Assembly (NCBI GenBank): GCA_040379745.1
Contig: JBEIKL010000003.1
Coordinates: forward strand, 1 to 43,909
Length of the DNA stretch: 43,909 nucleotides
Source of the DNA: Bdellovibrionales bacterium
Lineage (GTDB): Bacteria; Bdellovibrionota; UBA1018; CAIMNF01
Reading direction: 5' to 3'
The translations under genes and the position numbers were made by a program. Shown here one piece after another: positions 24,255 to 35,999 of this stretch. The notes under the pieces are model-generated. The model searched no databases, had not been told where the DNA came from, and was given only the letters and a program-made list of their open reading frames with translations. Positions within the stretch are counted from its first letter, which is position 1. Every line of letters starts with the position of its first letter.

Positions 24255-25586
24255 ATGGCACAGTTGAAAGTATCGGACATTGCAAAAAACATCCCTGAAT
24301 TCGACGGGAAAACCGTCACTCTCAAGGGCTGGGTTTACAACAAACGTTCATCGGGGAAAATCAAGTTCCTGATGTTCCGCGATGGTAGCGGTTTGATTCA
24401 GACCGTGATCATCAAGGGCGAGTGTGATGATGCGACCTTCGACCTGTTTGAAAAAATCGGTCAGGAGTCCTCCGTGGTCGTTACCGGCAAGGTGCGTGCC
24501 GAAGCGCGGGCGAAACTCGGTTTTGAGATCACTGTTCTCAACGTCGAACCGGTGCAGATCGCGGAGAACTATCCGGTCAGTCACAAAGAACACGGCGTGG
24601 AATTCCTGATGGACAACCGCCATCTCTGGATTCGCAGTCAGAAACAATGGGCCGCACTTCGTGTGCGTTCTGAGATCTTCTTCGCGATCCAGGATTTCTT
24701 CCGTCAGCGCGGCTTCACCCGATTCGATCCACCGATCCTGACGCCGACTTCTTGCGAAGGCACGTCTACATTGTTTTCAACTCCTTACTTCGAAGAAAAA
24801 GCCTACCTGAGCCAATCCGGTCAGCTTTACGGTGAAGCCGGCGCATTCGCGTTGGGTAACATTTATACTTTCGGACCCACTTTCCGTGCCGAGAAATCCA
24901 AAACCCGTAAACACCTTACCGAGTTCTGGATGGTTGAGCCGGAAATGACTTACGCAACCCTGGATGATGTCATGGATCTGGGTGAATCATTTGTGAAACA
25001 CATCGTGAGTCACTGCTTGGAAAATTGCCAAAAAGAACTCGTGATCCTCGAGCGCAATCAGGACGAGCTGAAGAAAATCATCTCTGGCCCGTTCCCGCGC
25101 ATCAGTTATGACGAATCGTTGAAGATTCTTGAAAAACGCGGCCTTTCGATTCCTTGGGGTGAAGACTTCGGTGCTCCACACGAGACCGCGCTCGGTGATG
25201 AGTTCGGAATGCCGGTGTTCGTTCACCACTTCCCTTCCCAGATCAAGTCGTTCTACTTCAAGAATGCGGATGATCCAAACGGTGGCGGTGTCGATCACGA
25301 TGGCAAATACGCACTCGGTGCGGACCTCATCGCTCCGTTCGGTTACGGTGAGATCATCGGCGGTGGCCAACGTGAAGACAAAGTCGAAATTCTTGAGCGA
25401 AGAATCAAAGAGCACAACCTGAAAGTCGAAGACTATTCCTGGTATCTCGATCTTCGTCGTTATGGAAGCGTACCTCACGGTGGTTTCGGACTGGGCGCTG
25501 AACGCACGGTTGCCTGGATCACCGGAGTGGAACACGTGCGTGAGACCATTCCGTTCCCACGCATGATCAACACCCTGAAACCATAA
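24255..25586 (+). CDS. asnS: Asparagine--tRNA ligase
   Basis: OB-fold, YLSQSGQLY, FRAEKSKTRKHLTEFWM.EPE, WYLDLRRYGSVPHGGFGLG.ER. Confidence 0.95.
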   Translation: MAQLKVSDIAKNIPEFDGKTVTLKGWVYNKRSSGKIKFLMFRDGSGLIQTVIIKGECDDATFDLFEKIGQESSVVVTGKVRAEARAKLGFEITVLNVEPVQIAENYPVSHKEHGVEFLMDNRHLWIRSQKQWAALRVRSEIFFAIQDFFRQRGFTRFDPPILTPTSCEGTSTLFSTPYFEEKAYLSQSGQLYGEAGAFALGNIYTFGPTFRAEKSKTRKHLTEFWMVEPEMTYATLDDVMDLGESFVKHIVSHCLENCQKELVILERNQDELKKIISGPFPRISYDESLKILEKRGLSIPWGEDFGAPHETALGDEFGMPVFVHHFPSQIKSFYFKNADDPNGGGVDHDGKYALGADLIAPFGYGEIIGGGQREDKVEILERRIKEHNLKVEDYSWYLDLRRYGSVPHGGFGLGAERTVAWITGVEHVRETIPFPRMINTLKP

Positions 25587-32100: not shown

Positions 32101-32807
32101 AGTTCCGTTCGGTATTCCTTGTATTTGCGGGCTTTCTGGGCCTGACGCTCGAGTGATGCGAGAGAACGGTCGATTTCCGCCAACACATCGTTCAAACGAA
32201 GAAGGTTCGCGTGCGCGCCTTCGAGTTTTTTGAGGGATTCTTTTTTGCGTTGTTTGTATTTTGCAATGCCGGCCGCATCTTCAATGAGAAGACGACGTTC
32301 TTCGGGCTTGGAGTTGACGACCTTGCCGATCTGCCCCTGTTCGATGACCGAGTAACCTTTCGCACCGACACCGGTGTCGAGGAAGAATTCCTGAATGTCT
32401 TTCAAGCGGGCTTGAACGCCGTTGATATAGTACTCCCCTTCACCGGTGGCACGGTACACGCGACGGGTGACGGAAATTTCTTTCCTCGTGATGGGGAGTT
32501 TTTCTTCGGTGGTCGCGCCCTCGCCGATCTTGTCGGTGTCGACCACATCCTGCTCCAAGACCAAAGTGGCTTCAGCCATTCCGAGTGGAGAATACTTGCT
32601 ACTTCCCTTGAAGATGATGTCGTCAGAACCACTGGAGCGGATGTGCTTATAGGACTGCTCACCCATGACCCAGAAAAAGGCATCGACGATGTTCGACTTA
32701 CCAGAACCGTTTGGTCCAACAATACCCGTAATGGGGCGGTCGAAGTAGATGACGGTTTTATCTTTGAAAGACTTAAAGCCTTGAATTTCTAGGCGTTTGA
32801 TACGCAT
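29163..32807 (-). CDS. smc: Chromosome partition protein SMC
   Basis: GFKSF, GPNGSGKSN, long coiled coils with hinge, LSGGEKAL, LDEVDAPLD. Confidence 0.97.
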   Translation of the reverse strand: MRIKRLEIQGFKSFKDKTVIYFDRPITGIVGPNGSGKSNIVDAFFWVMGEQSYKHIRSSGSDDIIFKGSSKYSPLGMAEATLVLEQDVVDTDKIGEGATTEEKLPITRKEISVTRRVYRATGEGEYYINGVQARLKDIQEFFLDTGVGAKGYSVIEQGQIGKVVNSKPEERRLLIEDAAGIAKYKQRKKESLKKLEGAHANLLRLNDVLAEIDRSLASLERQAQKARKYKEYRTELLEKETTWGRRKYAVLQRQITKVIDDRQALDHLLTGLKAELSSCEIDLESQRVVQLTDSKIQEQVQSEVETYAADLNHHQSALNLSRQRQEDLNRQLVQLNTEKEQIEEELSLYRESIAVKREDFESLDEKVAVLSARAEELNQQVVELRDAHDTDKREAEAKRRQFVELTQSSSSSYSQIAALKERIQGTEQQIARLVEQEEELKTQSESVIAEKAELIAKLEEKTASRDEMRVKLVEIKDQLKNTEDEFKTARQNRDQVMKKLASLSSRLKSLEDLEKSREGMANGPKKVLDWANGQGKNFSVLSDFIEVETGYDQAVEAVLGHAFERLYAQDSETAFAALHYLRENQEGSAAIQITVPYLEAKELANYNPLRKFVKFITPVNQNSESAKVIHQLIECLVSSVEVLEEVPNEGDIKTYQSEGISFVTKNGIWFDAKQGVLFGGSAESDQASSILARKRIIGELKTDVEAAEIENQNAEALVAKLSESVETMSVEVKTIQSALSDLEIETGSLEKERIQIERKTVEFERSLNRFNDDRETLNIQIQEAMGKIDGLEQSLIEIATQRDELDSWIKNHEAELSGKYESLRNAETECQTLKIQEAGEKERKNSLAKELETEQRYLQDRERRFGEVERLLETFDQDRTQFSGGDMEHEEAISRITRNLGDKREELSVIRDRLEQANTLVSTNMERMRELHKMNEEKNQVMNQFTIDLERAMSDLNHLKANMEDKYGVGCLEQTSGTNMQEEMTDPVVTIEMSEADEKALHEEVESLRDRIRRLGEVNTMAVEEYEDMQKRHEYLFKEKLDLETSIQNLNDAIEHINKTSEERFHKAFEAISTRFEKLFPIIFGGGQASLTLVYPEGSTDILEAGVDILAQPPGKKISNMTLLSGGEKALTALSMIFAIFMVKPSPFCILDEVDAPLDDSNIGKFNALVREMSAKSQFILVTHNKKTMELNDTLYGVTMEEPGVSRMVSIQLQ

Positions 32808-32876
32808 GGTGTAATCCCCCGATCACAAAAACAAGATGAGTAAATAATTTGACACTGCAGGGGCTTGATTACAAAT

Positions 32877-32907
32877 AAAAAAAGGGCCTGGATTTGGATC
32901 CAGGCCC
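32877..32907 (-). terminator. Intrinsic terminator upstream of smc
   Basis: Minus strand GGGCCTGGAT-CCAA-ATCCAGGCCC-TTTTTTT. Confidence 0.85.
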
Positions 32908-32960
32908 ACGATGTCTTTACGACTTCTGTTAGGGGGTTGGGGGTTCAGATCGTCGCCGAT
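32877..32960 (-). ncRNA. Candidate C-rich-loop small RNA or 3'-UTR element (5' end unknown)
   Basis: Stem ACGA-UCUG/CAGA-(AG)-UCGU with loop AACCCCCAACCCCCUAA, followed by terminator. Confidence 0.5.
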
Positions 32961-33111
32961 ATGTATATATTTTTTGGCTCCCTGCCCATTAGCAATCCCG
33001 CTGATATATTTACTATTTATTTTTTTCGAGCCCCGACTGGACAACCTGGCCAGGTTCGCCATCGTGGTTCATAGGTTTCACCGATATCCCGTGAGTTCTC
33101 CTATGCTTACC

Positions 33112-33195
33112 CTAGCGTGGGGGCCCCGCGTTGTGGACTTGGTGCTTTTCGTCTTTTGCGTTCTGAGACAGCTCACGTACTGCTTGTTCTCTCAT
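33112..33195 (-). CDS. Candidate 27-aa small protein MREQAVRELSQNAKDEKHQVHNAGPPR
   Basis: AGGAGG RBS just before ATG; TTGACC-N17-TAACCT promoter-like sequence upstream. Confidence 0.4.
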   Translation of the reverse strand: MREQAVRELSQNAKDEKHQVHNAGPPR

Positions 33196-33296
33196 ACGTC
33201 CTCCTGAATTTAGGTTACTATACCTGATTGTTAAGGTCAACTAATAATTTAAAGAAATCTGTTTATTTTTTTAGCCAATAATTACAGTATTTTGTC

Positions 33297-34016
33297 ATGC
33301 CGAGCCTGAGTATCGTCATCCCAGCCTACAATGAAGAGTCGCGGCTACCGCGCACCTTCGACCTCCTTAAGCAAGGGATGGAGGCAGGTGTATTCGCCGA
33401 GTTCGATCTCGCCGAAGTCCTGATCGTCGATGATGGTTCGCGAGATCACACCCAAGCGGTTTGCGAACAGCACCGCGCCATTCTTCCACAATTAAAATGT
33501 ATTCCAGTCAGTCCGAATCAAGGCAAGGGTAACGCCATCCATGTGGGCATAAAGGCATCGGTTGGCGAGTGGATCCTGATTGCCGATGCGGATACAGCCA
33601 CCCCTTGGGATCAGTTCTTGAAACTTTCGAAACAGGCGATTCAGAATCAAAGTGCGATTGCGATCGGTTCGCGTGATTTGCCCGAAAGTGACGTCCGCAC
33701 CAAACAATCCTGGATTCGGGAACACATGGGAAAAACCTTCAACGCCATCGTACGGTTGATCACCGGCCTGCCCTTTCACGATACCCAATGCGGCTTCAAG
33801 CTGATCGAAAAAAACAAGGTCGCATCCTTCCTGAGCCTTCTGATCGTGAAGCGCTTCGCTTGGGATGTCGAGTTCCTGATGTTCGCCCGTAAAAACAATC
33901 TCAAGATCACCGAAGTTCCCGTCACGTGGGAACATCAGGAAGCGAGCAGAGTCCATCCGATCAAGGATGCGTTTGAAATGCTCTGTCGGGTCATTGAAAT
34001 GAGAATCCGGATTTGA
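33297..34016 (+). CDS. GT2 polyprenol-phosphate glycosyltransferase (DPM/Alg5-like)
   Basis: SIVIPAYNE, VDDGSRD, N.GKG.A, DAD, IGSR, DTQCGFK, WDVE. Confidence 0.9.
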   Translation: MPSLSIVIPAYNEESRLPRTFDLLKQGMEAGVFAEFDLAEVLIVDDGSRDHTQAVCEQHRAILPQLKCIPVSPNQGKGNAIHVGIKASVGEWILIADADTATPWDQFLKLSKQAIQNQSAIAIGSRDLPESDVRTKQSWIREHMGKTFNAIVRLITGLPFHDTQCGFKLIEKNKVASFLSLLIVKRFAWDVEFLMFARKNNLKITEVPVTWEHQEASRVHPIKDAFEMLCRVIEMRIRI

Positions 34017-35569
34017 ACCGTTCCAAAGTTTTCACGTATCTCGCCTTGATCCTGGTCTTCTCTCTTTGGATCTACTCCCTTTTCCAGGTTCCCACTTTTG
34101 ATCTCGATGAATCGCTCTATCGCCGTGTTGCCGAGGAAATGAAATGGAATGGCGATTACTGGCATGCCGTCTGGGACGAACGCTCCCTTCACCACAAACC
34201 ACCGTTTTTTTACTGGTTGATCGTGATTTTCAGCCGCATTTTCGACGGTGCCGAAGCGGGAGTTTCCATTCTTTCCGCTCGATTTCCGAGTTTTCTTGCC
34301 ACACTGGGAATCCTTTGGTCCCTTTCGCGATTCGCCCCACTCAAAGAGACGATACTGGCATGGGCTTGCCTGTTGTTTCCATTGCTGACTTCGACAGCGG
34401 TCCTGTTCGATCCGATCCAGACTCTTTTGCTGATGCCGACCCTTCTGATTCCCCATCGCGCATTTTCAGAGGGAAGAATGATCTTGAAAAAAGAATACCA
34501 CTGGATGGCGATCAGCCTGTTCGGCGCCACCCTGTTCAAAGGGTTGAACGGACTCATCTTGCCCACTCTGGCGATCGCGCTGCACACACTCGCGTTCCAA
34601 TGGAAAAATGTTTTTCGGGCAGGCTTGCTCTATCTGAACCATGTATTCTTGCCGGCCCTGACACTGTGTTCGTTGGGCTTTTGGTTCCTCGATTGGAACA
34701 TCGGTCGACCATTCACGCAGGAATTTTTTCTGGTGCATCACTTCGGCCGCGGAACGCAGGCCATGGAATCGCACGGTGGCCCCTGGTTCTATCACCTGAT
34801 CACGACCCTCATCGGAGGTGGCTTGCTGATTCCACTTGTTGCGCACCACTGGCTTCGCACCCGTCCGAGTCTTCGCCGTCTCGGATACCCGCTGACTTTC
34901 GCAGTGGCCATCATTGTTTTCTTCAGTCTTTCGGCAACCAAACTGCCGCACTATACTTGGCCGATCTGGCCTGCCCTGGTTTTATTTTATTTGGAAATCC
35001 GCAAACTGCCGACCGTTACGATGGGTGTGAAATGGGTGGAAGCCTGGAAATTCCTGTTGATTCCGACGCTTGCTCTCGGCATTGCACTTTTCTGGCTGGT
35101 GCTCAACCCCGAAGCGATTCCGCAAACGGAACTCACTGACATCGAAGTGCTTCTTCTCAGTGCGGCCGCAACCTTCTGCTCGGTGGTGCCCTTTGTGTTT
35201 CAACGGTTTTTGAAACAGCCCGAGTATCTTGCCTTTTTCAATGCGATGATCACCCTGCTCATCGCGGTTCCCGCATCTTCAATCGCCGAGCGTATTTGGG
35301 TTGAACCCTACCGTGAAGCCGTCCGTGAATTGAAAAAACAAAATCCGCAACCGGGGGTCTGCCTCTGGGATACCGGGCCGATGACCGCTACGCTCAGTCT
35401 GGTCATGGGGCAGGAGTTGGGTCGAGGCTACACTCACAATCGGTGCGAACCCACCGGGATGCGCTTCCTGATCAGCCCGAAAGCGCGGGATGAGGAATGC
35501 GCCGAAAGAAAAATGAGCGTTCTCCACCGGGGGAAAACGCTCACTCTTTGCGGTTATATTGTGAATTGA
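34013..35569 (+). CDS. ArnT-like GT-C membrane glycosyltransferase
   Basis: DE.LY, KPP..YW, KG, H.GPW.Y, TKLPHY; overlaps GT2 gene end. Confidence 0.85.
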   Translation: MNRSKVFTYLALILVFSLWIYSLFQVPTFDLDESLYRRVAEEMKWNGDYWHAVWDERSLHHKPPFFYWLIVIFSRIFDGAEAGVSILSARFPSFLATLGILWSLSRFAPLKETILAWACLLFPLLTSTAVLFDPIQTLLLMPTLLIPHRAFSEGRMILKKEYHWMAISLFGATLFKGLNGLILPTLAIALHTLAFQWKNVFRAGLLYLNHVFLPALTLCSLGFWFLDWNIGRPFTQEFFLVHHFGRGTQAMESHGGPWFYHLITTLIGGGLLIPLVAHHWLRTRPSLRRLGYPLTFAVAIIVFFSLSATKLPHYTWPIWPALVLFYLEIRKLPTVTMGVKWVEAWKFLLIPTLALGIALFWLVLNPEAIPQTELTDIEVLLLSAAATFCSVVPFVFQRFLKQPEYLAFFNAMITLLIAVPASSIAERIWVEPYREAVRELKKQNPQPGVCLWDTGPMTATLSLVMGQELGRGYTHNRCEPTGMRFLISPKARDEECAERKMSVLHRGKTLTLCGYIVN

Positions 35570-35889: not shown

Positions 35890-35974
35890 AAAAAAAATGG
35901 GCCCGAATCAAGGGGGGTTGATCCGAGCCCGAAAAACATGCCTTTGGGGGTTAGGGGGGGTCGGCACGCTCACC
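35890..35974 (-). ncRNA. Candidate sigma54-dependent small RNA, about 85 nt, two C-rich loops
   Basis: Hairpin GCGUGCC/GGCAUGU with loop GACCCCCCCUAACCCCCAAA; terminator GGGCUCGGAUCAA-CCCCCC-UUGAUUCGGGCCC-AU8; -24/-12 promoter directly upstream. Confidence 0.7.
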
Positions 35975-35982
35975 ATTTATGA

Positions 35983-35999
35983 TGCAATGCGCATGCCAA
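35983..35999 (-). promoter_or_regulatory. Sigma54 (-24/-12) promoter
   Basis: TTGGCATGCGCATTGCA, near-consensus TGGCAC-N5-TTGC. Confidence 0.8.

Follow-up and report, generated by a model that had tools for sequence, protein, structure and literature searches.

A small-ORF RNA with a covarying two-hairpin domain and a C-rich tail upstream of smc in a Bdellovibrionales bacterium

The window analysed here is a stretch of 43,909 nucleotides from a Bdellovibrionales bacterium (contig JBEIKL010000003.1). Directly upstream of smc, identified by its Pfam SMC_N match (3.8e-50), we found on the minus strand a unit of ~330 nt (about 33205-32877), named 'GPP-sORF RNA' here. Its arrangement is strongly supported: a sigma70-like promoter, a Shine-Dalgarno sequence, a 27-codon ORF (sORF) ending in AGPPR, a covarying 85-nt two-hairpin domain, a G-rich linker, a C-rich stretch and a terminator. 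The features of the unit and its surroundings are:

35890..35998, minus strand: sigma54-type promoter (TGGCA 35998-35994, TTGC 35987-35984) and a ~88-nt sRNA with C-rich loops
33212..33240, minus strand: sigma70-like promoter read from the sequence, -35 TTGACC (33240-33235), 17-nt spacer, -10 TAACCT (33217-33212)
33112..33204, minus strand: Shine-Dalgarno GGAGG (33204-33200) and sORF from ATG (33195) to TAG (33114-33112), encoding MREQAVRELSQNAKDEKHQVHNAGPPR
33027..33111, minus strand: central two-hairpin domain (match to covariance model R2, 70.5 bits)
32961..33026, minus strand: linker with AU-rich AAAAAAAUAAAUAG, G-runs (GCGGGA, UGGGCAGGGAGCC) and AAAAAAUAUAUACAUAUC, an AU-rich loop flanked by GCC and GGC
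32929..32960, minus strand: C-rich module, AUCGGCGACGAUCUG followed by the C-rich stretch AACCCCCAACCCCCUAA
32913..32923, minus strand: GUC-GUAAA-GAC mini-hairpin of the RNAalifold consensus, an alternative to the lower stem described previously
32877..32907, minus strand: intrinsic terminator (10-bp stem, 4-nt loop, U7)
32805..32820, minus strand: smc ribosome-binding site GGGGG (32820-32816) and ATG (32807-32805), a candidate target of the C-runs

The transcription start of the unit is placed, provisionally, from the promoter-like sequence. TTGACC and its spacing are conserved among the copies compared, and the -10 element of relatives reads TGnGATTCT. A simple promoter scan chose an adjacent, weaker pair (33234-33207). 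Inspection by eye upstream of 32960 and of 33205 revealed no sigma54 motif, as the preliminary description had noted for the element, and the TTGACC-N17 promoter-like site was seen instead. A sigma28-like or internal promoter at GGGAGCC...AUAUAC, also judged by eye, showed no consistent -35/-10 pair and was therefore dropped.

Positions 32877-32960 had been described before as a C-rich minus-strand hairpin with a terminator and U7, ending about 70 nt before smc. We recovered these structures. The sequence 32975-32870(-) folds into a stem GCGAC..UCUG / CAGA.GUCGU enclosing the 17-nt loop AACCCCCAACCCCCUAA (32945-32929), with an energy of -28.9 kcal/mol (z = -4.24; none of 200 shuffles as stable), and the last U of the terminator lies 69 nt from the smc ATG. 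The terminator stem GGGCCUGGAU/AUCCAGGCCC (32907-32884(-)) leads directly into U7 (32883-32877), the G+C-rich stem-loop plus U-run of an intrinsic (Rho-independent) terminator. A terminator scan recovered the same 10-pair stem (seven pairs G-C, 4-nt loop), which covaries among copies, with 6 to 10 rows altered on both sides at inner pairs. The hairpin above it was said to combine differing stems with a conserved loop, as in sibling sRNAs. We found no covariation behind this pattern: 82% of alignment cells are compatible with the hairpin and 135 of 500 shuffles score equally high. The mini-hairpin GUC/GAC is compatible with 89% of cells, and covariation is absent there too. The C-rich hairpin and terminator before smc are thus real, yet they form the 3' module of a longer RNA and are no stand-alone gene.

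The C-runs occupy 32943-32939 and 32936-32932 (-) within the motif CCCCCAACCCCC. Together with GCGA.GAUC, both are invariant or nearly so in 24-25 aligned copies from 17 genomes. In the window, C5-N1-5-C5 occurs twice where 0.39 occurrences are expected; since 10 of 100 shuffles also reach two, this excess is weak on its own. The 2.5-Mb assembly contains ten such sites on both strands, and a terminator follows at only three: both elements of the window and one copy on contig C14. Ordinary terminators therefore do not commonly carry the motif; a frequent association would have spoken against the earlier proposal. One could read the element as the ordinary terminator of a small-protein mRNA with C-runs arisen by chance, in keeping with the weak window-level excess. 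The near-invariance of the C-runs, the scarcity of comparable terminator sites and the covariation of the domain between ORF and tail make this extremely improbable.

ORFs as short as 27 codons are rarely reported by gene callers. The sORF frame is open in 25/25 aligned copies, versus 1/25 and 4/25 for the other two frames, and the third codon position is the most variable (0.40 vs 0.28 and 0.27). Copies exchange synonymous codons for Gly, Pro and Arg, end in any of the three stop codons and differ by indels in multiples of three. This strong comparative coding signature suggests that the sORF is translated. The 27-residue peptide has no Pfam match at E <= 0.01. Among 45 copies examined, 44 carry the sORF, 39 of them with Pro-Pro and 38 with Gly-Pro-Pro (codons at 33126-33118(-) in the window). 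The distance from Pro-Pro to P1, the first helix of the central domain, is 11 nt in 38 of the 39 copies, and by eye also in the 39th; the stop codon shifts between -8, -5, -2 and +7 relative to P1. Pro-Pro has been lost in 5/45 copies (EDPR, RHRR, GDPQR, EDQR), including the second copy in the window's own genome. Gly is preceded by A, V, T, I, H, S, P or G, and by R in a single copy (RGPP in G043a).

The central domain comprises P1 (GCAUAGG/CCUAUG), an inner helix capped by the self-complementary GAUAUC, and a second hairpin, CCAC...GGGG, capped by CUGGCCAG. In 25 copies, 90.3% of cells are paired, compared with 76.2% in shuffles and 32-43% when the structure is slid along the alignment. Compensatory changes occur at 17 of 23 pairs, a score reached by none of 500 shuffles. 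Both hairpin tips are self-complementary: the identity of the 6-nt palindrome at the first tip differs between lineages with its self-complementarity kept, and the second tip reads YGGCCR. The HIV-1 dimerisation initiation site is a self-complementary kissing loop of this kind, likewise a 6-nt tip palindrome that changes in sequence and stays self-complementary. In the GPP-sORF RNA dimerisation is a prediction, and the RNA differs in being bacterial and chromosomal and in having a second palindromic tip.

In the linker, GGGAGC is invariant or nearly so across aligned copies, and the GCC/GGC pairing is supported by two compensatory and two wobble rows. Folding of the whole 3' domain (six species) or of the complete RNA (23 sequences) predicts mostly paired C-runs, with a mean unpaired probability of 0.24 versus 0.44 for the whole RNA. 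The G-rich linker accounts for a share of 0.57 of the predicted partners and the 5' Shine-Dalgarno region for 0.16. Masking of the C-runs by the upstream G-runs is thus predicted, and the 'loop' is context-dependent, as the C-runs lie in a loop when the 3' piece is folded alone. The G-run/C-run pairing shows no covariation among aligned copies; here, as for the previously described hairpin, this is because the columns are invariant.

Such folds also suit a reading in which the C-runs are purely structural, closing the 3' domain with the G-runs, or serve as a decoy for the sigma54 sRNA or a protein like CsrA, with no mRNA targets. The G-run/C-run helices form the minimum-energy fold in 6/6 species and dominate the ensemble in the 23 RNAs, GGGAGC persists unchanged even where a copy lacks C-runs (G014b), and CsrA is present in 5/5 genomes searched. 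Against this, covariation is lacking, one copy (G015a) has a degraded first C-run with unchanged G-runs, and only about three GGA motifs are conserved, far below CsrB-type sponges. We consider a structural or decoy role unlikely. With so few GGA motifs and an Rfam CsrB score of 9.9 bits (gathering threshold 71), a CsrB-like sponge was dropped.

A BLAST search with the whole unit gave E <= 6e-12 in 15/16 same-genus genomes and nothing convincing outside the genus, so covariance models were used instead. In the following counts, related genomes are not independent samples. The core model R2 (ORF plus folded domain) matched 52 of 116 genomes of the order, with one to four copies each, of which one usually adjoins smc; in a sample of 128 genomes from the phylum's other orders it matched none. 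By these comparisons, conservation of the ORF and hairpin core across the order is strongly supported. The tail model R1 (3' domain) matched 15/16 genomes of genus g1, the one genome of g2, and elsewhere gave one strong and three weak matches in 75. Judged from these matches, the C-rich module is a lineage-specific addition in two genera. A pattern scan of species genomes returned at least 118 stretches. Among the 80 listed, 11 were confirmed by R1, in records named Bdellovibrio, Bdellovibrionales, Oligoflexia, 'Proteobacteria' or 'Nitrosovibrio'; the other 69, mostly in G+C-rich genomes, are chance matches, so the scan says little on absence elsewhere.

At gathering thresholds, a search of the window against Rfam 15 found only five tRNAs. 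For 32780-33320 at E <= 10 the best scores were FsrA (15.8 of 80 bits) and ClpQY_promoter (15.7 of 42), and five distant copies gave no match at E <= 0.5. 6S RNA (RF00013) and tmRNA (RF00023) were rejected as identities, both being found elsewhere in 5/5 genomes (in the window's assembly on contigs C6 and C125, respectively). The GPP-sORF RNA gave no match to a curated RNA family, and we found no description of it in the literature searched. To our knowledge, almost no riboregulators have been characterised in Bdellovibrio-type predators. What began as a single odd hairpin is now a defined RNA family, present in roughly half of the order. Absent from the preliminary description were the conservation of the coding ORF, the covariation of the central domain and the spread of the family across the order.

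Metatranscriptomes show the family expressed in lakes and rivers. Eight RNA runs contain a fraction of 0.51-0.56 of the words sampled from a 501-nt stretch at the locus, and in four runs from four studies we found contigs of 251-273 nt lying wholly inside 32905-33193 with 0 mismatches. In natural samples the unit is transcribed as a single RNA, and it assembles far more easily than its neighbours; the contigs span from the start of the ORF into the C-rich stretch without a break, although contigs cannot reveal RNA ends, strand or processing and RNA libraries may contain DNA. This bears out the earlier suggestion of co-transcription with a small-ORF transcript starting near 33210, as does the conservation of the unit as a block. 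RNA cover of the element, which that proposal demanded, exists down to 32905; the uncovered parts (32877-32904, 33194-33210 and both flanking genes) are no evidence of RNA ends or silence. No contig extends to smc or to the glycosyltransferase gene, which contigs cannot turn into proof of absence.

The sigma54-type sRNA lies ~3 kb from the unit. Its element at 35890-35974 carries CCCCCCCUAACCCCC and sits behind TGGCATGCGCATTGC; the covariance model R3 built for it scores 93.1 bits at its own locus and matches 29/116 genomes of the order. It is thus a conserved sRNA, and it does share the C5-(U)AA-C5 motif with the unit's tail, as had been reported. R1 does not match 35890-35978 at E <= 1, and in the 116 genomes R3 matches a long-RNA tail once, weakly (25.6 bits, E 0.008). 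Without a mutual match of the models, the resemblance amounts to a common motif with no demonstrable homology, and by this comparison the sigma54 sRNA is a separate family. Of the earlier interpretation, the co-transcription, the shared motif and the link to smc stand, whereas the two-member family of short siblings does not: a full-length paralogue of ~330 nt, on contig C14 of the same assembly, is the true sibling.

Nevertheless, an ~85-nt sRNA could be cut from the 3' end of the sORF transcript, acting on the same targets through the same seed as the sigma54 sRNA and differing in transcriptional input, as originally proposed. The common motif is often preceded by GAUC in both, the AU-rich loop just 5' of GGCGACGAUC is a possible RNase E-type site, the 3' piece alone exposes its C-runs, and both loci are syntenic within the genus. 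Apart from the missing cross-match, no processed species was seen, the RNA contigs are continuous from the ORF to the C-runs, and the distributions differ, the sigma54 sRNA occurring in 11/75 genomes of family f4, where the tails of the long RNA are not C-rich. We regard this proposal as somewhat unlikely.

The position 5' of smc, already remarked upon, is conserved in relatives. Family f1 has the unit upstream of smc on the same strand at 17 of 18 'a' loci (in the 18th the contig ends), and the same holds for its position in G018, G036, G038, G066, G068 and G061. By gene order, the linkage is persistent and spans three families. It invites the view that the unit acts in cis on smc as a leader or attenuator, in which sORF translation and the folds set read-through and the C-runs mask the G5 ribosome-binding site; a proline-codon leader ORF with helices and a terminator would follow the logic of mgtP/mgtL, as far as the available parts of PMC3641672 and PMC5299641 describe it. 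Many copies, however, stand alone: at least 13/45 have a convergent gene next to their 3' end, and in G027 unit and smc are transcribed divergently. The same/opposite strand count is 28/16/1, figures that include spurious antisense ORFs (e.g. at G014b and G002b). A response-regulator gene intervenes between unit and smc in G003, G006, G012 and G018, the gap spans about 70 to 560 nt in different copies, a strong terminator closes the unit, none of the RNA contigs reaches smc and no antiterminator fold was identified. An smc leader is accordingly a quite improbable reading.

A G5 or G6 run precedes the smc start in 17/17 f1 loci and in G018 and G036; in G038 and G027 no such run was seen. G018 and G036 have the site, yet their RNAs lack the C-rich tail. 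Read from the sequence, the complementarity between tail and smc site is confined to a G-C core of 5 bp. Nor are G5 runs rare ahead of start codons (190 vs 96 for a C5 control), these counts resting, like the target scan and the strand counts, on gene starts from crude ORF calling. An RNAduplex scan of 2347 crude start regions ranked smc 387th and 355th; as long loop-rich pseudo-duplexes dominated the scan, no target was drawn from it. Hfq was not found in 5/5 genomes searched, four of them at least 93% complete, which fits G-C-rich seeds, as in the C-rich sRNAs of Hfq-independent systems.

We see about an even chance that the element is the 3' module of a dual-function RNA, its C-rich tail being a regulated seed that pairs with G-runs. 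According to this proposal, a ribosome on the sORF would slow at Gly-Pro-Pro; the fixed spacing of 11 nt would place its leading edge at the foot of P1, so that the translation status of the sORF decides how the RNA beyond it folds. At rest, the upstream G-runs and, in part, the Shine-Dalgarno sequence of the RNA itself would mask the C-runs. These might be freed when the AU-rich loop is cleaved, when the RNA refolds or when the sigma54 sRNA, which also carries C5-(U)AA-C5, competes; they would then pair, independently of Hfq, with G5 runs in ribosome-binding sites, smc being one candidate.

In its full form, which appears improbable to us, the GPP-sORF RNA would be a translation-gated, self-associating riboregulator. 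The pause at Gly-Pro-Pro would serve as a readout of EF-P, prolyl-tRNA or overall translation capacity, the self-complementary tips of both hairpins would allow dimerisation or multimerisation, and in the two tail-bearing genera this sensor would control exposure of the G-run-masked seed. The sigma54 sRNA, as a seed mimic, would compete for the same G-runs, and both would tune genes with G5 ribosome-binding sites, including smc. Should the gating idea hold, the RNA would be a natural case of an sRNA module controlled by a translational pause; should it fail, what remains is a new structured RNA family encoding a conserved micro-peptide. Notable features of the family are a peptide motif at a fixed distance from a helix, tips that stay self-complementary despite sequence change and a lineage-specific C-rich tail mimicking a sigma54 sRNA.

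6C RNA, RsaE/RoxS, LhrC and FsrA are C-rich-loop sRNAs that pair with G-rich sites without Hfq. Like 6C RNA (RF01066), RsaE/RoxS, LhrC (RF00616) and FsrA (RF02273), the GPP-sORF RNA has C-runs next to its terminator, unpaired in those families, none of which is the tail of an sORF RNA. The sigma54 neighbour scores 26.2 bits against LhrC and 25.3 against 6C; these values and the FsrA score of the GPP-sORF element lie far below the gathering thresholds (110, 47 and 80), so neither RNA is a member. Targets of C-rich-loop families are treated in the available parts of PMC2790875 and PMC6158497.

A similar layout is known from the Rhodobacter sphaeroides ccaF1-CcsR1-4 locus ('cuckoo' RNAs), where, according to the available text of PMC8034643, sRNAs are released from a 3' UTR by RNase E, which prefers AU-rich sites, at AU/U-rich sites. 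Both systems co-transcribe a small ORF with a downstream C-rich, anti-Shine-Dalgarno-like module, and in both the loci are duplicated and rearranged. The CcsR RNAs carry CCUCCUCCC in both loops of four repeats and ccaF1 encodes a 71-aa DUF1127 RNA-binding protein (same text of PMC8034643), whereas our RNA has a single C5-AA-C5 stretch and a 27-aa peptide outside any Pfam family. An 85-nt covarying domain stands between ORF and tail, and the phylum differs. With CCCCCAACCCCC instead of CCUCCUCCC, no Pfam match for the sORF and no Rfam match, we do not assign it to the CcsR family.

Salmonella mgtP and mgtL are proline-codon leader ORFs governing EF-P-sensitive attenuation (PMC3641672, PMC5299641 and PMC6460261, each in its available part). 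They share with the sORF a short Pro-Pro ORF just before helices that depend on ribosome position, but as described there they are 5' leaders of a defined operon, whereas many GPP-sORF copies stand alone and end in a terminator; moreover, Gly-Pro-Pro here is fixed 11 nt from the helix, with no alternative antiterminator fold identified. X-Gly/Ala-Pro-Pro near the C-terminus of a small ORF also recalls the RAPP/RGPP/RAGP arrest peptides (ApdA, ApdP, ApcA, SecM), with which PMC10951233 is concerned as well. In the available part of PMC12992588, Arg is essential and AGPP and AAPP are arrest-defective controls. Since AGPP is such a non-arresting control, any pause here would be mild and EF-P-sensitive. 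Arg is missing in 37/38 Gly-Pro-Pro copies, so the family as a whole lacks the Arg-(Ala/Gly)-Pro-Pro signature near the C-terminus; there is also no signal peptide in the sORF and no sec or yidC gene downstream.

Qrr-type sRNAs (PMC10162802) are sigma54-dependent siblings, with a TGGCAC-N5-TTGC promoter some 12 nt ahead of their start. The GPP-sORF element showed neither a sigma54 promoter nor a sequence or model match to them, while the neighbouring sRNA resembles them in its TGGCA-N7-TTGC promoter and conserved seed.

The C-rich element upstream of smc is the lineage-specific tail of an order-wide, expressed RNA of ~330 nt (GPP-sORF RNA, or long RNA) that carries a small ORF (sORF) and a structured domain. 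The preliminary description had read it as one of two sibling sRNAs, together with the element at 35890-35974. Its co-transcription with a small ORF, its shared motif and its synteny with smc held up; the nature of the object did not, as it forms part of a longer RNA. The features concerned are:

32960-32877, minus strand: C-rich element, with AUCGGCGACGAUCUG, AACCCCCAACCCCCUAA, CAGAAGUCGUAAAGACAUCGU, GGGCCUGGAUCCAAAUCCAGGCCC and U7 in this order
about 33205 to 32877, minus strand: full-length unit, from the 25-copy alignment
35890-35998, minus strand: sRNA that has a sigma54 promoter and three C-rich stretches and is flanked by a GAF-GGDEF gene and a histone-fold gene

Folded in isolation, the element at 32960-32877 forms a stem around a C-rich loop of 17 nt and, behind it, a terminator of 10 bp (-28.9 kcal/mol, z = -4.24; no fold as good in 200 shuffles). 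The terminator scan was concordant. The hairpin, C-rich loop, terminator and U7 described before smc are borne out; the smc start (Pfam SMC_N) lies 69 nt beyond the end of the element. The double C-run by itself is only weakly unexpected in the window (2 versus 0.39 expected, with 2 reached in 10/100 shuffles), and the 2.5-Mb assembly has 10 such sites, both strands together. Since only three of these ten precede a terminator (both window elements and one site on contig C14), the arrangement is not common at ordinary terminators and the observation stands. That it arose by chance is very improbable.

The C14 site is alike far beyond the tail: a TTGACC promoter element and everything down to the terminator, ~385 nt in all, can be aligned with 33260-32860. 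The full-length unit was found by BLAST (E <= 6e-12) in 15 of 16 same-genus genomes, often twice per genome, and 25 copies from 17 genomes were aligned. Their order is constant: Shine-Dalgarno sequence ACGGAGGACG, an ATG-initiated ORF of 26-27 codons, a domain of ~85 nt, an AU-rich stretch, G-runs ending in an invariant GGGAGC, an AU-rich loop, GGCGAYGAUC, the C-runs, a GUC-N5-GAC mini-hairpin and the terminator. The sORF frame is open in all 25 copies, the remaining two frames in 1/25 and 4/25. Insertions and deletions come in multiples of three, each of the three stop codons is used, synonymous replacements affect Gly, Pro and Arg codons, and the third codon position is the most divergent (0.40 vs 0.28 and 0.27). 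Judged by this comparative signature, the sORF is very probably coding; the window's peptide, MREQAVRELSQNAKDEKHQVHNAGPPR, has no Pfam family.

Of the words sampled from 32800-33300, eight metatranscriptome runs contain a fraction of 0.51-0.56 (DNA runs up to 0.93). Four runs from four studies each yielded one contig of 251-273 nt lying wholly inside 32905-33193 with 0 mismatches; a fifth RNA-library contig stems from a related strain. None of these contigs extends into smc or the glycosyltransferase gene. They are uninformative on RNA ends, strand and level, and DNA may occur in RNA libraries, but they show that ORF, central domain and C-runs are joined in single assembled molecules from such libraries, as the proposed co-transcription implied, and that the unit, not its neighbours, is what assembles. 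A processed sibling sRNA, cut from this transcript, would share the co-transcription; with bridging contigs at hand, we consider it unlikely.

The central domain is a structured RNA. Its model, counted on 25 copies, comprises four helices in two hairpins, the first with an inner helix; 90.3% of the cells pair, compared with 76.2% after shuffling and 32-43% with partners slid. Compensatory changes occur in 17 of the 23 pairs, and the covariation score was equalled in none of 500 shuffles. Neither the window region nor five distant copies matched an Rfam family, 6S RNA and tmRNA are located elsewhere in the genome, and the long-RNA family has no match in Rfam 15. Nor did we find it in the openly accessible article texts searched, PMC3627812 included. 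Self-complementarity of both hairpin tips emerged on comparing the window's domain (33027-33111, minus strand) with 44 related copies. At the inner-helix tip, a self-complementary hexamer is present in 44/45 copies with G-U allowed and in 38/45 with Watson-Crick pairs only (three rows read by eye); position-free shuffles averaged 29.1 and 13.5 and reached at most 38 and 22, respectively. The hexamer varies by lineage (GAUAUC, GACGUC, GGCGUC, GGUACC, GAAUUC, CACGUG), and the second tip is GGCC in 44/45 copies. Because neighbouring loop bases are unable to pair inside one hairpin, the pattern suggests pairing between RNA molecules, i.e. kissing-loop dimerisation, and the G-U variants argue for RNA over a DNA operator.

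Among 45 copies, an sORF of 17-36 codons is present in 44, the last being interrupted by a contig end. Pro-Pro is encoded in 39 copies and Gly-Pro-Pro in 38, the next residue being Arg, Lys or once Asp; five copies, among them the second one of the window's genome, have lost Pro-Pro. From the end of the last Pro codon to the G opening helix P1 there are 11 nt in 38 of 39 copies, and by eye also in the 39th, while the stop codon shifts relative to P1 (-8, -5, -2 or +7). Given the leading-edge geometry known from ribosome footprints, we infer from this fixed spacing that, when the second Pro codon occupies the P site, the front of the ribosome would just reach the foot of P1. If a pause occurs there, an ordinary Pro-Pro pause, sensitive to EF-P, is to be expected. 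The motif is not a RAPP-type arrest sequence: according to PMC12992588, Arg is essential and AGPP is a non-arresting control, and this Arg is missing in 37 of the 38 Gly-Pro-Pro copies.

Covariance model R1 (3' domain and tail) has two hits in the window's genome. Among 116 genomes of the order, it matches 15/16 of the window's genus and 1/1 of a second genus; elsewhere, 75 genomes gave one strong match, from a bin with 5% contamination, plus three weak ones. Model R2 (central domain) matches 52/116 genomes, with up to four copies each (families f1 18/18, f4 31/75, f5 1/1, f10 1/1); in 128 genomes sampled from the phylum's other orders, it has no match. Among the matches listed, named records with the long RNA bear the titles Bdellovibrio sp., Bdellovibrionales, Oligoflexia or vaguer ones. 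As distant copies keep sORF and domain and have different 3' regions that are not C-rich, the core is old and the C-rich tail a later addition.

Some copies deserve separate mention. Genome G045, placed in f4, has on its short contig C98 (L041/L213) a copy typical of the window's genus, with that genus' gene order (R1 107.9 bits, R2 91.3 bits); as the bin is 5% contaminated, the contig is probably mis-binned. Two contigs of a 'Nitrosovibrio sp.' record (L107, L146) carry true copies (R1 106.8 and 92.1 bits), and the organism label looks wrong. The second copies of G014, G002 and G013 (L209, L210, L223) form a sub-type without C-rich tail, followed by a gene that resembles, by eye only, the NAD(P) transhydrogenase alpha subunit or alanine dehydrogenase; another sub-type (G007, G016, G001, G011, G004) has a convergent gene after it. 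Near 25155 (minus strand) of C14, at the contig end, a run of 15 C with G-rich flanks is probably an assembly break point.

Within the tail, aligned copies show little or no variation in GCGA.GAUC and in the two C-runs. The hairpin described initially and the GUC/GAC mini-hairpin are mutually exclusive; each is compatible with most sequences, and neither shows covariation in the aligned copies. Minimum-energy folding predicts, in six of six species, that the G-runs further upstream are the pairing partners of the C-runs. In ensembles computed for 23 full-length RNAs, the C-runs have a mean unpaired probability of 0.24 (0.44 overall); the G-rich linker accounts for a share of 0.57 of their partners and the Shine-Dalgarno region of the same RNA for 0.16. 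Masking of the C-runs by G-runs, an energy-model prediction on invariant columns, is thus plausible. We propose, with about even confidence, that the RNA has a dual function, its tail being a seed that pairs with G-runs and can be masked. A tail with a purely structural or decoy role, which the predicted internal pairing would also suit, seems rather improbable.

The sigma54 element is a genuine, conserved sRNA. Behind its TGGCA-N7-TTGC promoter come a hairpin whose loop contains AUCCCCCCUAACCCCCUCA, a U-run and a terminator again with a C6 loop; CCCCCCCUAACCCCC, within 35890-35974, confirms the motif in common with the C-rich element. Its model, R3, matches 16/16 and 1/1 genomes of the two genera and 11/75 of f4, one copy each, and within the genus it lies ~3 kb from the smc-linked long RNA. 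R1 has no hit at the sigma54 element of the window's genome. R3 matches a long-RNA tail just once, weakly; the two RNAs therefore have a motif, and perhaps partners, in common, a shared ancestry being not demonstrable. The sRNA has sub-threshold likeness in Rfam to two sRNAs with C-rich loops, LhrC (26.2 bits) and 6C RNA (25.3 bits).

In 17/18 f1 loci, one long-RNA copy is flanked by smc on one side and a divergent family-2 glycosyltransferase gene on the other, confirming the synteny; at the 18th the contig ends. Copies are upstream of smc also in G018, G036, G038, G066, G068 and G061; in G027 the copy is divergent from smc. Four genomes have an intervening response-regulator gene between unit and smc. 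The remaining copies are located elsewhere, many facing a convergent gene. That the element is an smc leader, which this linkage would favour, we regard as quite improbable. A G5 or G6 ribosome-binding site precedes smc in 17/17 f1 loci and also in G018 and G036, yet these two are without C-rich tails, and G5 before starts is not rare (190 vs 96 for a C5 control). Tail-smc complementarity is limited to a 5-bp core, and smc had no special rank as a target in a crude duplex scan. Among five genomes (G000, the window's own, G002, G011, G012 and G016; four at least 93% complete), Hfq (PF17209) was found in none and CsrA (PF02599) in all.

A 518-aa ORF at 34013-35566 (plus strand), between the glycosyltransferase and histone-fold genes, has no Pfam family at E <= 0.01. 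Between terminator and smc ribosome-binding site, 10-25 nt before G5, most genus members have a conserved inverted repeat, GYGUCA-N8-9-ACRC (GUGU/ACAC, GCGU/ACGC), with an AU-rich centre (window 32826-32856, minus strand), a candidate RNA hairpin or operator. Upstream of this repeat, several genomes have a further motif, GCTTGCCTTTTC.
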